Position numbers and translations under genes: made by a program. A stretch of DNA of 32,000 nucleotides, from positions 1 through 32,000 of the forward strand of contig JBBIMK010000011.1 of the NCBI GenBank assembly GCA_037444445.1, in the 5' to 3' direction. Source of the DNA: a bacterium (GTDB lineage: Bacteria; UBP7; UBA6624; JBBIMK01). The notes beneath the pieces were generated by a model. The model made no database searches. It was not told where the DNA came from and saw nothing but the letters and a program-made list of their open reading frames with translations. Positions 23,524-32,000 of the stretch are shown piece after piece (position 1 is the first letter of the stretch; each line of letters opens with the position of its first letter).

Positions 23524-23976
23524 TTATTTGGTCATCTTATCCTTGATATAGAAGTAATTTCCGACGCCATACATCAAGCCAGAAGCGGTGATACCCATAA
23601 CCAATAGCAGAACCTCATTCCACGCCGGGAACTTCCCTGTGCTGAAAACAGAGAACAGGAATGCCCCTCCGAGAACGATGGTCCAGAAGAAGAATTGGAA
23701 TCGGCTCAGGCTTACATGCCCATCCTCCCCCAGTATCACGCGAACCAGTGGGGGGATACCCACGACGAACCCGAAAAGATATAGAACTAACTGGGTCAGG
23801 AAGAGAATCACTACTCCGCCGTAGAACAGAAGGGTGGTAGCGGTCACCAGGTCGGGCGACATAACCTTCAGAATCTGAACGATAACGGCGATAATAACGA
23901 CGAAAAGGACAAACCACAGGAGCCATTGCCACCAGGGCCGGCTCCGCCAGAAAGTTTCATCCAGAATCTCCTTCAT
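23524..23976 (-). CDS. hypothetical membrane protein (about 4 TM)
   Basis: MKEILDETFWRSRPWWQWLLWFVLFVVIIAVIVQIL... starts from the ATG at 23976, preceded by AGGAGGTG. The longer track ORF (to 24159) would overlap the upstream gene and has no SD. Confidence 0.6.
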   Translation of the reverse strand: MKEILDETFWRSRPWWQWLLWFVLFVVIIAVIVQILKVMSPDLVTATTLLFYGGVVILFLTQLVLYLFGFVVGIPPLVRVILGEDGHVSLSRFQFFFWTIVLGGAFLFSVFSTGKFPAWNEVLLLVMGITASGLMYGVGNYFYIKDKMTK

Positions 23977-24085
23977 CTGTTCACACCTCCTGACCTGTAT
24001 TATATCAAAGAATGATGAAGAGGGGAGGCGCCCACTGGTCCACTGACCCGGGAAAATATGTCGGTAACGAAATTTGAAGCAGGTT

Positions 24086-25072
24086 CTACGAGCGGTGGGA
24101 ACCCACGGCGTCGCGGAGCGCCTGGAGATTAGCCTCCGGTGTGGCGATGGGAATGACACATCCAGCGCCCAGAAGGAATCGTTTCCCTCCCGTCTGGGCT
24201 ATGGCATCTTCCGCTTCCTGTCGGACCTGTTCGGGGGAGCCTTTATACAGGGTGTTCCTCTCATTCAAACCCCCCATAACGGCGCCCGGAAAGGTTTCCA
24301 TCGCTTCAGGTAGAGAAGGGGGGGCGCGACGGTCGTGCCAGTTCACAATCTGCACCGGGTAGTCCTTGATGATGTGGAAATAGGGGTTCAAGCCGTGAAT
24401 GTGCAGGAGTATAAAATCTGCGCGGGTTGTGAGAGGGTTCAGAACCTCCAGCTCATAAGGGACGCCGAAAGTTTTGTATTCATTTTCCGTGAGAATTTCT
24501 GCGGTAGCGGTTTTGGTGGCGAAGAAAATCGCATCTGCGCCAGAATTTAAGCAGGCCTTTGCATAGTTCAGCGTAGTATGAGTGATAATTTCCAGCCCGG
24601 CATGCACCTCTTTCGGCTTCTCCCGTATGTCATTCCGCCAGGCATCTCCCCGGAGTTCTGTAAGTATGGTGAGAGGGCTGAAGAGGGTGGGCAGGAGGGG
24701 AATGTCCCAGCCGATTCCCGCCCGTATCTGTTGAAGGGCTCGCAATTGCATGCCGAGGATGCCCTTATGAACCGATGGAGGGGTGAGTTTCGGCCAATCT
24801 TCAGGAAAATGAACGGGACGGCTGCGGTAGGTTCGGGTCCCGTCCTCGGCATCGGTGGGCACCAGTTGAGCGCCGAAGGCTTCCGCCATATACCCGCTGG
24901 CGAAGGTCACTTTCACCAGGTCCCAGTCATATTTCTTCTGGAAGGCGATGGTTTCTTTTGCCAGACTCTCCGCCGCTGTATCCTCAATGGGAAAATGCCG
25001 CCACACCGCCACAGGAACCCTCTCTACTTCTTCCCCCCGTATCACCTTTTGAATCCATTCCCTCCTCGTCAT
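24086..25072 (-). CDS. uroporphyrinogen decarboxylase (URO-D) family protein, MtaA/CmuA-like
   Basis: 328 aa. The N-terminus MTRREWIQKVIRGEEVERVPVAVWRHFP and the TIM-barrel-like length and pattern are typical of URO-D family methyltransferase/decarboxylase homologues. Confidence 0.6.
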   Translation of the reverse strand: MTRREWIQKVIRGEEVERVPVAVWRHFPIEDTAAESLAKETIAFQKKYDWDLVKVTFASGYMAEAFGAQLVPTDAEDGTRTYRSRPVHFPEDWPKLTPPSVHKGILGMQLRALQQIRAGIGWDIPLLPTLFSPLTILTELRGDAWRNDIREKPKEVHAGLEIITHTTLNYAKACLNSGADAIFFATKTATAEILTENEYKTFGVPYELEVLNPLTTRADFILLHIHGLNPYFHIIKDYPVQIVNWHDRRAPPSLPEAMETFPGAVMGGLNERNTLYKGSPEQVRQEAEDAIAQTGGKRFLLGAGCVIPIATPEANLQALRDAVGSHRS

Positions 25073-28354: not shown

Positions 28355-28372
28355 TCCGGGAGATGATGCGTG

Positions 28373-30097
28373 ATGGTTCACGAATTTGATGTGGTGATTG
28401 TGGGGGGAGGAGGAGCGGGATTATGGGCTGCTCTGGAAGCCTCCCGGCGGTGCAAAACCGCGGTCCTGTCCAAGTTATATCCCACCCGCTCGCATACGGG
28501 GACGGCCCAGGGTGGCATCGGCGCCGCCCTGGGCAATGTGGAAGAAGACCACCCGGAATGGCATATGTTTGACACCGTAAAGGGAAGTGATTATTTAGCC
28601 GACCAGGACGCCGTTGAAATCCTGTGCAGGGAAGCGGTGGAAACGGTGCTCTCCCTGGAGCATATGGGCTTGCCGTTCAACCGCACATCGGAGGGGAAAA
28701 TTGACCAGCGCCCCTTCGGTGGGCACACCTCTAACTTCGGGAAAAAACCGGTAAGACGAGCATGCTACGCCGCTGACCGAACAGGACACATGATTCTACA
28801 AACCCTCTACCAGCAGTGCATCAAAAATCAGGTGGCTTTTTATGATGAGTTTCAGGTTCTGGATGTGCTGTTAGAGGATGGAATTTGCAAAGGTGTCGTG
28901 GCATGGGAACTCGCCACCGGCTCCCTGCACACCTTTCTTTCTAAGGCGGTGATTCTTTGCGTCGGTGGCGCCGGCAGGATGTTCAAAATCACTTCCAACG
29001 CCCATTCCCTCACCGGCGATGGTATGGCTATTTGTGCCCGCCGGGGCATCCCCCTGGAAGATATGGAGTTCTTCCAGTTCCATCCCACGGGAATTTACAA
29101 GCTGGGCATCCTGATTACGGAAGCCGTTCGGGGTGAGGGTGGGATTCTCCTCAATCAGGATAATGAACGGTTTATGGAACGCTACGCACCCACGCTGAAA
29201 GACCTGGCACCCCGGGACCTGGTTTCCCGCTGTATGTACACCGAAATCCGTGAGGGCAGGGGCATTGATGGAAAGGATTACCTGTATCTGGACGCCACTC
29301 ATCTCGGAAGGGAAGTCATAGAGAAGAAACTTCCTGATGTGGCTGATTTCACACGAACCTATTTAGGAATTGACCCTGCAGAGAAGCCCATCCCCGTCCA
29401 GCCTACTGCTCATTATATGATGGGCGGTATACCCACAGATGTGGACGGTCGGGTGATACAGGATGAAAAGAATACCCCCGTTCCAGGCTTGTATGCGGCG
29501 GGAGAATGCGCCTGCGTCAGCGTTCACGGAGCAAATCGTCTGGGCACCAACTCCCTGGTGGATATTCTGGTTTTCGGGCGTCGCTCAGGCCGTCACGCTG
29601 CCCTCTACGCCCGGGAGGTGGATTTACCCTCACTGCCCGATGACCCGGAACGCTACGCCCGCCAGCAAATAGAAGCACTCCTGAGAAGAGAAAAAGGGGA
29701 ATCGGTGGCTGAAATCCGCTCCACCCTCCAGAGCGAAATGATGGACAAGTGCTCCGTTTTCCGAACCAGCACGGATTTGCTCCTCCTCCAGAAAACGATT
29801 CAGAATCTAAAGGACCAGTATCGGGGCGTGGCTATCCACGACCGTGGAAAAAAGTTCAACACGGAATTGATGGAAGCATGGGAACTGGGATGCTTGCTGG
29901 AATTAGCCGATTGCACCGTCGCATCCGCACTTCAGAGAACGGAAAGCCGGGGTGCCCACTACCGTGAAGATTTCCCCAATCGCGATGATGAACGCTGGCT
30001 GAAACACACCCTCGCTTATCCGAAGGAGGAGGGCTGGAACTTCCGCTACAAGCCCGTCGTCATCACCCGCTTCCCCCCCGCTGAACGAAAGTATTAA
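28373..30097 (+). CDS. sdhA: succinate dehydrogenase / fumarate reductase flavoprotein subunit
   Basis: [15 protein letters not shown] is the FAD dinucleotide fold. [11 protein letters not shown] contains the covalent-FAD His. HPTG, RGEGG and [23 protein letters not shown] are also present. Confidence 0.95.
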
Positions 30098-30167: not shown

Positions 30168-30203
30168 AAAAAATGGAGGGGAGGAGCTTGTCTCCTCCCG
30201 CCA
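30168..30203 (-). terminator. canonical intrinsic terminator on the minus strand
   Basis: The minus strand reads TGGCGGGAGGAG-acaag-CTCCTCCCCTCCA followed directly by TTTTTT. It lies about 300 nt downstream of the lipoprotein stop (30509). Confidence 0.55.
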
Positions 30204-30508
30204 GAATAAGCGAGACTCCAGAATTATTCAGATTGATTCTTTTCTATCCTGTCTACAAAAGATTGACTTTTTTTACATTCCCTTTATATTACATAATGCC
30301 AGTGAAGTTAAAGAAAGAAACCGAAATTTTTCCCCTTTACTCTCTCTCGTAGTAGCCGTTGGTGGCTGGCTTTCTGCCCTCTCTTTGCCATTTTATACCC
30401 CTTAAAAATGGGAAGATTCCCTTTCTTCGCACCCTCTTTTATCTGGCTGTCCTGATTTCCTTTATCCTCTGGATTTTCCGCTGTAGGGTCGTCCCCTGCA
30501 CCAATCTA

Positions 30509-31663
30509 TTATATGGGCAGGATGACCCAGGCGAGCCAGAAGGGGGGCAAACCGGTGGAAAGGGGGGCAGATGTTTCCCACTGGTCGTTGTTTGTTCGTA
30601 AGATTCGTAAGCCGGGAGCGGATGGGTTTCTATCCAGCACGAATAGTTTATCTCCCCCGGGCGCCAAAGCAATTCTGGCAAGGTGAAATCCTTCGGAAAC
30701 GAGAAGGGTCTGCTCCACCATTTTCGTAATCGGATTGAAACTCACCAGAAGGGTTTTGAAAGAAGAATCCGAGAGGATGGCATATCCTTTGCCCGGCTGG
30801 AGAGCGAAATCTAACAAGTCTCCGCCCAGTGCTTCTTCCGTAATCAGGAAGCCGCGTGAGGAAAGGTTCACCGGGTTCACGACTTCAATGCCCCCATCTA
30901 ATACCCCGTATTCACCCGTATCCGCTACATACAGCAAGCCGTCCTGAAACAGGAGGTCAGTTCCCGCACAAGGATTTTTCCCCTGCAGGGGTATGGCATC
31001 GGGTTCCGGGGTGGAAGGATTGACATCTACGAGAGTATCCGTAGTGGCATCCACAACCGCTAAAAGGCCGTTCCCAGCAGGAGTGTAGAGATTATTCCGG
31101 TCCAGTCGCTGGATGGCGATGAATAGTCGGTTGTCGTGAAGCAGCATATAGGACATCTCAGGAAGTCCATCCGCATCAGCGAAGGGTGAGAGGTCAATTT
31201 CCTTCATAGTGGCACCATTGGTCAGGTTCATCTTGAGGAGTTCAGGACGGTCGTATCGGGAGATATAGGCGTAGTCGGGACTGATGAATTCCATATCATA
31301 GGGGTTTGAGCCAGCGCCTGTAGACCACTGGGAAGTAGTGGGCTGAAAACCCTGCCCGGGGTTCACCATCAGCACATTGTCTTGCCCCCGGCGGTTGATC
31401 ACCCAGATGCGCCCTCTGTTAGAGTCATATACTGCGGTGGCATCGCTGTGTATGGGATAGTTCAGCACGGTCATCTGGTTTGTATCCATAGAATAGGTGG
31501 CATACTGGCCGGTTTGAAAATCGGTGGTGACGATGAAGGCGAATGAACTGCCCACGATGGGAGTCGGTAACGGAGGATTACCCCCGCACGCTGAGAATCC
31601 GGAAATCACCATAAACAGGCAGAGAGTGAGAACCCTCTGCCTCCTGATACAGAAAAGATACAT
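30509..31663 (-). CDS. lipoprotein with beta-propeller-like repeats (YncE/LVIVD-like)
   Basis: MYLFCIRRQRVLTLCLFMVISGFSAC contains a lipobox (FSAC). Propeller-blade-like motifs recur: RGRIWVINRRG, DNRLFIAIQRLD, GLLAVVDATTD, GLLYVADTGEYG, GIEVVNP, GYAILSDSS, DKLFVLDRNP. Confidence 0.65.
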   Translation of the reverse strand: MYLFCIRRQRVLTLCLFMVISGFSACGGNPPLPTPIVGSSFAFIVTTDFQTGQYATYSMDTNQMTVLNYPIHSDATAVYDSNRGRIWVINRRGQDNVLMVNPGQGFQPTTSQWSTGAGSNPYDMEFISPDYAYISRYDRPELLKMNLTNGATMKEIDLSPFADADGLPEMSYMLLHDNRLFIAIQRLDRNNLYTPAGNGLLAVVDATTDTLVDVNPSTPEPDAIPLQGKNPCAGTDLLFQDGLLYVADTGEYGVLDGGIEVVNPVNLSSRGFLITEEALGGDLLDFALQPGKGYAILSDSSFKTLLVSFNPITKMVEQTLLVSEGFHLARIALAPGGDKLFVLDRNPSAPGLRILRTNNDQWETSAPLSTGLPPFWLAWVILPI

Positions 31664-31671
31664 TTTGTCTC

Positions 31672-31856
31672 GCCTCCTGCGAGATGGATTGAGTCTGGCA
31701 GGTCTCCCGGCTCCCGGTTCAGTCTACTGGCGGCGCCTTCCCACCCCGATTTTTCAGGGCAGTGGCATCTTGCCGCTTTCGTCCCCGGACACGGTGGCAG
31801 GGGCCACCCTCGCTTTCACGAGGTTCCCTTTTCAGGCTATTGCCACCAGACCCTCA
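31672..31856 (-). promoter_or_regulatory. cobalamin (B12) riboswitch in the 5' leader of the lipoprotein gene
   Basis: The minus strand reads GGTGAGGGTCTGGTGGCAATAGCCTGAAAAGGGAACCTCGTGAAAGCGAGG..GCCCCTGCCACCGTG...GATGCCACTGCCC...GGTGGGAAGGCGCC...AGCCGGGAGACCTGCC. It therefore has the AAxAGGGAA-GTGAAA core, GCCACTG, GGGAAGGC and a B12-box (AGCCGGGAGACCTGCC). The SD AGGAGG sits in the loop of the hairpin TCTCGC/GCGAGA just before the ATG. Confidence 0.8.
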
Positions 31857-31862
31857 CCGCAA

Positions 31863-31871
31863 ATTATAGCA
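31863..31871 (-). promoter_or_regulatory. extended -10 promoter TGCTATAAT for the riboswitch-lipoprotein transcript
   Basis: The minus strand reads TGCTATAAT, immediately upstream of the riboswitch P1 region. Confidence 0.5.
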
Positions 31872-32000
31872 TAAAAAACTGAACCCTCCGCGCCAGACAA
31901 TCCAGTGTGCTTTTATTCTTCATGATTATAGGGTTCCATTTCCCTCCAGATGGTTCAGGAGGGATTGATAAGGCGGGGGGAGAGGGATTTGAAATTTCAT

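Follow-up and report, generated by a model that had tools for sequence, protein, structure and literature searches.

The closest described counterparts of the locus studied here are the btuB-btuG loci of Bacteroides (Wexler et al., 2018; Abellon-Ruiz et al., 2023), in which a cobalamin riboswitch is followed by the gene for a TonB-dependent receptor, BtuB, and this in turn by the gene for a β-propeller surface lipoprotein, BtuG. The three BtuG proteins of Bacteroides thetaiotaomicron, BtuG1, BtuG2 and BtuG3 (BT1490, BT1954 and BT2095), cap BtuB and bind vitamin B12 with femto- to picomolar affinity (PMC6143338; PMC10404256), and BtuG gives gut Bacteroides a decisive edge in the competition for the vitamin. 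BtuG was described as exclusive to Bacteroidetes (Wexler et al., 2018; PMC6143338), and according to a 2023 preprint the pairing of a lid protein with a TonB-dependent transporter is found almost only in Bacteroidota (10.1101/2023.03.17.533168). Two further seven-bladed propellers that are exported or exposed at the surface are XusB, the xenosiderophore-binding lid of a Bacteroides TonB-dependent transporter (PDB 9HQK), and YncE of E. coli.

The window (the whole 32,000-nt stretch of DNA that was analysed) contains the gene of a 384-residue lipoprotein, P0001, behind a cobalamin riboswitch (Table 1). A preliminary description, made from the letters alone, had proposed that this protein is a corrinoid scavenger analogous to BtuG. 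The riboswitch, the fold and the gene linkage of the homologues all support this proposal, corrinoid binding itself being a prediction, and in our reading P0001 is most probably a B12-repressed outer-membrane lipoprotein, remotely related to BtuG, that captures corrinoids for BtuB. The open reading frame, the signal peptide and the lipobox with its lipidation site, from which it had been recognized as a lipoprotein, are all present.

Table 1. Features of the riboswitch-propeller locus (positions in the window; all on the minus strand).
Feature	Position	Strand	Basis or remark
Extended -10 promoter-like element TGCTATAAT	31863..31871	-	Read from the sequence; without a good -35
Cobalamin riboswitch aptamer (RF00174)	31680..31865	-	Rfam match, 100.8 bits (cut-off 31.5), E 2.4e-24, model positions 1-189 of 189
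Riboswitch L5 CCCCUGCC	31803-31796	-	C-rich loop within the aptamer, which also holds the B12 box
P13-type hairpin UCUCGC-AGGAG-GCGAGA	31668..31684	-	MFE and centroid folds
Shine-Dalgarno AGGAG	31674-31678	-	The 5-nt loop of the P13-type hairpin, 10 nt ahead of the start codon (ATG, 31663)
P0001, 384-aa BtuG-like β-propeller lipoprotein gene	30509..31663	-	Open reading frame and translation
P0001 parts: signal peptide (residues 1-25), lipobox FSAC with Cys26, Pro-rich linker, propeller (about residues 38-384)	31588-31586 (Cys26)	-	
Intrinsic terminator GGGAGGAG-ACAAG-CTCCTCCC followed by a T-run	30179..30199	-	Terminator scan and sequence

The leader had been assigned to the cobalamin riboswitches over positions 31672-31856 on the basis of the motifs AAAAGGGAACCTCGTGAAAGCGAGG, GCCACTG, GGGAAGGCG and the B12 box AGCCGGGAGACCTGCC. 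All four motifs were found in the sequence, and the match to the Rfam model, which is strongly significant, lies within a few bases of that span. Throughout this work riboswitches were called by Rfam scans; hand-written regular-expression screens for the B12 box missed Rfam-confirmed positives. The element TGCTATAAT in front of the aptamer, also pointed out before, is present and of the extended -10 type, and we infer that it is the promoter of the riboswitch-propeller transcript. It was not listed by a sigma-70 scan that needs both hexamers, because a good -35 is absent.

Some cobalamin riboswitches reportedly control translation through a kissing loop between L5 and L13. The present leader resembles the E. 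coli btuB and env8 riboswitches in its C-rich L5 and in a downstream hairpin that holds the Shine-Dalgarno sequence in a G-rich loop. This small hairpin, which the preliminary description had placed just before the ATG, forms in both types of fold; an equivalent hairpin follows nine of nine riboswitches of the phylum, with compensatory changes in its stem, and in these nine the first base of its loop covaries with L5. Unlike in E. coli btuB and env8, the loop-loop pairing proposed here has a short span of 3-5 bp that includes one mismatch, and its support from covariation is a single position in three or four lineages. No strong terminator was seen after the aptamer, and the hairpin bearing the Shine-Dalgarno sequence is probably a translational expression platform. 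A terminator-like hairpin inside the open reading frame (31642-31617) was also considered as a part of the switch, but was judged an unlikely one because of its weak T tail and its position within the signal-peptide codons.

The propeller gene is monocistronic: downstream, sdhA is convergent (28370-30097, plus strand), and upstream lies a pseudouridine synthase frame on the same strand, whose stop codon, as read from the sequence, is near 31926. The canonical terminator that had been reported some 300 nt past the stop codon of the propeller gene was located about 310 nt after it, and is the probable end of the transcript. It was also correct that no btu gene lies within the window. The statement that the propeller gene stands alone behind a riboswitch holds in a local sense only, because the 2.07-Mb genome has two copies of RF00174, and the other one heads a btuF-btuD-btuC-btuB operon on another contig (C1), with btuB at about 148.1-150.8 kb. 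While the order riboswitch, receptor, propeller is shared by the Bacteroides loci and is the rule in other phyla, this genome splits the module into btuF-btuD-btuC-btuB and the propeller gene, which is not adjacent to btuB, and each part is controlled by a riboswitch. The two riboswitches are mutual closest relatives, with 68% identity and identical P1 arms, which suggests that they arose by duplication.

The genome (93.8% completeness) encodes a single copy of P0001 and one protein with a B12-binding domain; neither CbiC nor CobS was found in it, and B12 synthesis genes were not detected. Its BtuB is orthologous to the receptors encoded beside propeller genes: the identity is 31-34%, and reciprocal searches pair them as best matches (2e-37 and 4e-35; next receptor 2e-7). 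The closest relatives of P0001 itself are P0002 and P0003 (47-48% identity). A cobalamin riboswitch is located in front of the propeller gene in all eight species genomes of the phylum, directly before it in the seven others.

The propeller-blade-like repeats that had been noticed in the translation form a seven-bladed β-propeller in the AF2 model (pLDDT 91.8), each blade holding four of the 28 strands. When this model was compared with known structures, BtuG1, BtuG2 and BtuG3 ranked first: the best nine Foldseek matches were cobalamin-bound forms of these proteins (E about 1e-13, TM 0.66-0.79), and the best 11 VIA-align matches were BtuG or 3DSM (Z 30.9-32.2). Over 300-313 residues the model and BtuG (PDB 3DSM, 8BMY, 8BMZ, 8BN0, 8OKV, 8PTD, 8BLW, 8BMX and 8P97) superimpose with an rmsd of 2.6-3.3 and Z scores of 31-32, at 12-16% identity, and in both a lipoprotein signal and a linker precede the propeller, which spans about 330-350 residues. 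It should be noted that the other propellers reach Z scores of up to 29.5, that the gap between BtuG and unrelated propellers is only 2-4 units, and that seven-bladed propellers all look alike. XusB, with a Z score of 25.1, is clearly below BtuG, and both XusB and YncE differ from BtuG in their lower structural rank, in having no match to the sequence profiles described below, and in their lack of a link to B12.

P0001 matched nothing in Pfam or NCBIfam. In particular, the Pfam model DUF5074 (PF16819), which we take to be the model of the BtuG family, partly on the grounds of cluster names in the protein atlas, did not match P0001 at E 0.01, and with the threshold relaxed to E 1 it still matched none of 37 family members; when run against the whole genome it left the propeller gene untouched. 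P0001 is named BtuG-like rather than BtuG because this model is not matched; it also differs from BtuG in that its gene is separate from btuB and has a riboswitch to itself. Two family profiles of different composition (A1 and A5), on the other hand, matched only BtuG chains among 177,635 PDB sequences (E 2.9e-6 to 1.8e-3, with 6e-6 for a profile of the family, the next match being noise at 0.048 or above), a link that appears weak but specific, and the only named neighbours of the protein in the atlas were DUF5074 clusters of Bacteroidota (0.93). As the profiles reach only BtuG in the PDB and the nearest named atlas clusters are DUF5074, the relation is probably one of remote homology rather than mere analogy. 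The B12-contact residues of BtuG2 that were considered are Glu55, Gln93, Asn107, Ser131, Trp149, Ser195, Tyr196, Gln219 and Tyr239; the alignment spans the propeller in part, and two of these could be mapped, Ser131 to the near-invariant Asn120 and Trp149 to about Asp138. The residues counted as invariant in the family are Asp74, Asn90, Arg91, Asp95, Asn120, Asp123, Asp163, Asp165, Arg186, Asp205, Asp213 and Asp256.

Outside the phylum, 38 loci were informative, and the survey of gene context tied the homologues to B12 riboswitches and transport genes in 37 of them, as it did in the eight genomes inside the phylum. In these 37 loci, as in Bacteroides, the propeller gene directly follows that of a riboswitch-controlled TonB-dependent receptor; they comprise 29 of 30 genomes from other phyla, in which the riboswitch shares the strand of the propeller gene, is found 2.2-4.9 kb upstream of it and is usually the only one of the genome, a second copy in one genome (L050), and seven of seven further loci. 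The mapping of riboswitch to propeller was checked exactly in seven loci, and in the seven loci tested the gene in between encoded a TonB receptor with plug and barrel. The lone exception among the 38 retains a remnant of the receptor. An alignment of 10 sequences was used to search for related loci; an alignment of 37 had no stretch that was conserved enough.

The propeller family was found in metagenome-assembled genomes of Krumholzibacteriota, Eisenbacteria, Latescibacterota, Binatia, Myxococcota-type bacteria, Gemmatimonadota and Verrucomicrobiota, in addition to the small phylum of JBBIMK01. At least 410 stretches in species-representative genomes matched it, and in the protein library it accounts for about 1,900 cluster representatives. 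A lipobox is present in 38 of 45 short members. The long ones carry T9SS/FlgD-Ig tails, and T9SS sorting tails occur in most members from other phyla. Unlike BtuG, many members of this family have a T9SS tail in place of a lipid anchor; the tails support an extracellular location, as predicted for the family. Taken together, the data point to a separate propeller family without a Pfam model, which has the fold, the gene neighbourhood and the regulation of BtuG in many environmental phyla. Because the genes of its members immediately follow an importer gene under B12-riboswitch control in about eight further phyla, the BtuG-like device for B12 capture, which had been described as restricted to Bacteroidetes, seems to be widespread. 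A literature search, whose coverage left out most subscription journals, returned no published description of the family under BtuG in other phyla or with type IX secretion, DUF5074 or DUF6580. If its members bind corrinoids, lid-assisted B12 capture would be a strategy generally used by diderm bacteria of soils, sediments and waters, and the family would be a usable metagenome marker for B12 scavengers.

On this basis, P0001 may work as follows. At low cobalamin the Shine-Dalgarno sequence in the P13 loop would be free and the mRNA translated, while bound cobalamin would let the L5-L13 kissing loop form and hide it, so that control would be translational and not transcriptional. The protein would be exported, lipidated at Cys26 and anchored in the outer membrane, probably facing outwards. 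One face of the seven-bladed propeller would bind corrinoids and then pass them, on contact, to BtuB, which is encoded in the btuF-btuD-btuC-btuB operon behind the only other cobalamin riboswitch of the genome.

The outward orientation is the first point at which a different reading must be considered. Surface exposure is not the default for lipoproteins outside Bacteroidota, and to our knowledge no signal for lipoprotein surface export is known for the phylum of JBBIMK01. Since a periplasmic orientation is usual for lipoproteins of bacteria other than Bacteroidota and spirochaetes, P0001 could sit in the inner leaflet of the outer membrane or in the inner membrane and, within the periplasm, chaperone or store corrinoids on their way from BtuB to BtuF; the sister family discussed below, whose propeller is co-transcribed with a BtuF-like or DUF6580 protein and for which a TonB receptor was not found, fits such a role. 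However, the T9SS tails of most members from other phyla deliver to the cell surface or the medium, the family genes directly follow the gene of an outer-membrane receptor just as btuG follows btuB, and the closest solved relatives are surface lids, so that we consider a periplasmic orientation unlikely. Somewhat less likely still is that P0001 belongs to the B12 uptake regulon without binding the vitamin, as a structural cap or assembly factor of BtuB, or as an extracellular enzyme for the release or remodelling of corrinoids ahead of their uptake. Gene linkage indeed speaks only for an involvement in B12 uptake, a few family members show weak Pfam similarity to glutamine cyclotransferase and NHL repeats, and cobamides are not bound by BtuK2, another Bacteroides propeller encoded in a btu operon (PMC13616437). 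Nevertheless, B12 binding with picomolar or tighter affinity is shared by every characterised protein of the closest known family (PMC6143338; PMC10404256), one of the mapped contact positions retains a hydrogen-bonding side chain, and no catalytic motif was identified.

It is very improbable, finally, that the propeller is unrelated to corrinoids and repressed for some other reason, or that its association with the riboswitch is accidental. Cobalamin riboswitches do control B12-independent isozymes of the metE and nrdAB type as well, and P0001 is without an annotated domain, but the association recurs in 37 of 38 informative loci from several phyla and in eight of eight genomes of the phylum, a gene for a receptor or a binding protein being present every time, and a cytoplasmic isozyme role does not fit an exported protein.

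Capture of corrinoids for BtuB, the reading that we prefer for P0001, need not apply to all its relatives. In a sister lineage with small genomes, the only cobalamin riboswitch of the genome controls a propeller gene co-transcribed with that of a BtuF-like binding protein or of a DUF6580 membrane protein. No TonB-dependent receptor was found in this diderm lineage, and the lid role is therefore not universal for the family, which comes in three variants: lipid-anchored, T9SS-sorted and receptor-less. It is conceivable, although we regard it as doubtful, that all these propellers form an ancient, multi-phylum lineage within a BtuG superfamily and have a function independent of BtuB, and that the propeller of the sister lineage feeds an undescribed, TonB-receptor-free entry of B12 through the outer membrane. 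The T9SS-tailed forms elsewhere might be surface-attached or released B12 catchers. The sister-family propeller did not match any PDB sequence when its sequence alone was searched, and was rejected as a sequence bridge to BtuG. Its structural model is moderately confident (pLDDT 71.7) and has BtuG first in the ranking, with YncE at rank 24 or lower, and a word-indexed search retrieved five close relatives of the protein.

The gene for the lipoprotein (P0001) stands alone behind the riboswitch, as the preliminary description had it: the next gene downstream is convergent, and the canonical terminator claimed about 300 nt past the stop was located. The N-terminus of P0001 carries, in this order, positive charges, a hydrophobic stretch, the expected lipobox F-S-A-C (Cys26) and a proline-rich linker. 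The same-strand gene upstream encodes a pseudouridine synthase, whose frame, read from the sequence, ends near 31926.

Features of the lipoprotein locus and of a second gene pair in the window
Feature	Position	Strand	Remarks
Extended -10 element TGCTATAAT	31871-31863	-	Read from the sequence; without a good -35
Full-length cobalamin riboswitch (RF00174)	31680-31865	-	Rfam scan: 100.8 bits (cut-off 31.5), E 2.4e-24
Hairpin UCUCGC-AGGAG-GCGAGA	31684-31668	-	3' of the aptamer; in MFE and centroid folds
Terminator-like hairpin	31617-31642	-	11 bp, GC-rich, weak T tail; inside the signal-peptide region of the lipoprotein gene (codons 8-16)
Lipoprotein ORF (P0001)	30509-31663	-	384 residues
Spacer	30200-30508		About 310 nt, P0001 stop codon to terminator
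Basic ORF	30391-30308	-	27 codons; in the spacer, preceded by AAGGGG
Promoter-like TTGACT-16-TATATT	30263-30290	+	Firing would be antisense into the lipoprotein gene
Intrinsic terminator, clean	30199-30179	-	About 310 nt 3' of the P0001 stop
sdhA	28370-30097	+	Next gene downstream of P0001, convergent
MtaA/CmuA-type (URO-D family) methyltransferase-like gene	24086-25072	-	A 211-aa ORF comes next; pair spans 23524-25072

Every riboswitch motif quoted earlier is present in the sequence, and the Rfam scan bore out the assignment, RF00174 being the sole Rfam family detected across the entire window. The two-hexamer promoter scan did not list TGCTATAAT because it has no good -35. As previously described, the Shine-Dalgarno sequence lies in a small hairpin, of which it forms the 5-nt loop, 10 nt 5' of the ATG. 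An equivalent hairpin follows 9/9 cobalamin riboswitches collected from the phylum; the stems vary compensatorily (UCUCGC/GCGAGA, AUUAC/GUAAU, GUUUC/GAAAC, UCGC/GCGA), and the loops read AGGAG, GGGAG or GGGCG. Position 1 of the loop is A with an L5 of CCCCU in the window, and G with CCCCC in all the other riboswitches. In E. coli btuB and env8-type switches, translation is known to be controlled by an L5-L13 kissing loop. The riboswitch and hairpin of the window are consistent with such control, a mechanism that we infer, since the covariation depends on one change. No convincing terminator was found 3' of the aptamer, and the terminator-like hairpin inside the lipoprotein gene is probably incidental.

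P0001 has no match in Pfam or NCBIfam, while a word-indexed search gave 1,350 matches; at E <=0.001 the family numbers 1,926 cluster representatives, of which 259 reach <=1e-30, and identity to P0001 peaks at 49% (P0122). A confident AlphaFold2 model built from a 37-sequence alignment (pLDDT 91.8, pTM 0.87) has seven blades and 28 strands. The suggested Foldseek comparison favoured BtuG: the best nine PDB matches are BtuG1, BtuG2 and BtuG3 of Bacteroides thetaiotaomicron (E about 1e-13, TM 0.66-0.79), most with cobalamin bound. VIA-align puts BtuG chains or 3DSM in all of the first eleven places (Z 30.9-32.2, rmsd 2.6-3.3, 300-313 residues), followed by an archaeal S-layer propeller (Z 29.5) and others at <=28, a small margin, as is expected for propellers. 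Searches by sequence agree. A family profile searched against 177,635 distinct PDB sequences retrieved BtuG chains alone (E 5.7e-6 to 4.3e-4, the next match being noise), a second profile of different composition gave the identical list, and in a protein-language-model atlas every named cluster within the nearest 30 is a DUF5074 cluster of Bacteroidota, at 0.93. Against BtuG membership, as judged from sequence models, counts the failure of DUF5074, the BtuG Pfam model, which misses P0001 and 37/37 family members even at E 1 and, run across the whole genome, leaves the P0001 gene untouched.

The gene neighbourhood is the decisive evidence. A pattern scan of species-representative genomes yielded 410 stretches encoding relatives of P0001, and the 80 loci kept come from MAGs labelled Krumholzibacteriota, Eisenbacteria, Latescibacterota, Binatia, delta-proteobacteria/Myxococcales, Gemmatimonadetes and Udaeobacter. 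For 30 of these loci the entire genome was scanned with RF00174; in 29 the homologue has a same-strand riboswitch, in most cases the genome's only one, 2.2-4.9 kb upstream (coordinate mapping was matched exactly by direct scans in 7 loci). A second copy in one of these genomes (L050) has its own upstream riboswitch, as do 7/7 further loci with enough upstream sequence, so that 37 of 38 informative loci outside the phylum show the linkage for which a homologue survey had been proposed. The gene in between is a Plug + barrel TonB-dependent receptor in 7/7 tested loci, in some of them with a BtuF-like protein or two unknown ORFs ahead of it; Bacteroides btuB-btuG has the same order (PMC6143338, PMC10404256). 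The exception, L059 (7210-9344), has no riboswitch within 8 kb; its homologue is preceded by a 195-aa ORF matching just the last, C-terminal third of a receptor barrel, and with this remnant alone the locus looks like a decayed btuB-propeller locus.

Two ORFs without Pfam match (about 460 and 300-335 aa) separate the riboswitch from the receptor at L040:3498-5866, ahead of the propeller, and likewise in L038, L051, L053, L055, L056 and L071 (delta-proteobacterial, Myxococcales, Binatia). They are candidate extra components of a B12 uptake operon.

GTDB lists eight species in the phylum of the window, and the homologue found in the other 7/7 is more remote (E 1e-26 to 1e-32) and stands directly behind a riboswitch. 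In the AT-rich, 1.0-1.4-Mb genomes of the sister family (L006-L012, L098, L099) this is the only cobalamin riboswitch. It controls the propeller with a BtuF-like binding protein in L098 (G003:C10:116800-123644) and with a DUF6580 membrane protein in L099 (G001:C41:15600-22875). Four sister-family genomes (78-86% complete) yielded no Plug-domain TonB receptor, BamA being present, and in them the propeller may be BtuG-like and act without BtuB. Every sister-family genome (L006, L007-L012) has a divergently oriented tRNA gene pair 30-40 nt upstream of the riboswitch, an arrangement that is strictly conserved.

Besides the riboswitch of P0001, the genome of the window (2.07 Mb in size, 93.8% complete) has only one more cobalamin riboswitch, which heads btuF, btuD, btuC and a TonB-dependent receptor. 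This BtuB, one of three TonB receptors, is 31-34% identical to the propeller-linked receptors over 616-680 residues and is their reciprocal best match (2e-37 and 4e-35 vs 2e-7 for the next). The two riboswitches (31675-31870 -; L002:1496-1771 +) are 68% identical, with identical P1 arms, and each is farther from the sister-family switches (51-58%). This suggests an intragenomic duplication; since the two are mutually closest, the propeller gene may have taken a copy along on leaving the btu operon.

The BtuG fold and profile matches and the riboswitch and receptor neighbourhood make the earlier proposal of a corrinoid scavenger the best explanation, and P0001 is likely a BtuG-like corrinoid-capture lipoprotein serving an unlinked BtuB. 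Of the best 120 homologues, most short ones carry a lipobox (38/45) and long ones end in C-terminal FlgD-Ig or T9SS sorting domains, in near mutual exclusion; either kind of signal would take the propeller to the envelope or the surface of the cell, and a periplasm-facing chaperone appears unlikely. Aligned to full-length BtuG2 (contact residues from PMC13616437 and 10.1101/2024.02.16.580637), the B12-contact Ser131 falls opposite Asn120, the near-invariant Asn of the family's GSNPxD motif, and Trp149 opposite about Asp138; these are all the contacts mapped, and the numbering is validated because Trp149 is in the right place. A non-binding role in the uptake system, as accessory protein or enzyme, is somewhat less probable than a periplasm-facing chaperone, and an unrelated function is very improbable.

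BtuG homologues were described as exclusive to Bacteroidetes by Wexler et al. (PMC6143338), and proximity of lid and receptor as conserved virtually only in Bacteroidota by Price and Arkin (10.1101/2023.03.17.533168); a 2026 review left open how far the distribution extends outside Bacteroidota (PMC13616437). Within the incomplete coverage of our search, no literature was found that describes BtuG-like proteins from these phyla or forms sorted by the T9SS. The P0001 family shares fold, regulation and neighbourhood with BtuG, but is a separate sequence family, in other phyla and with alternative anchoring; unlike BtuG, P0001 has its own riboswitch.

The genome encodes a B12-binding-domain protein and, at 93.8% completeness, no detectable CbiC or CobS, which fits the profile of a corrinoid scavenger but falls short of proof. 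Elsewhere in the window, the MtaA/CmuA-type gene and the 211-aa ORF beside it, which has no Pfam match, lack riboswitch control and may be a corrinoid-dependent methyl-transfer pair.
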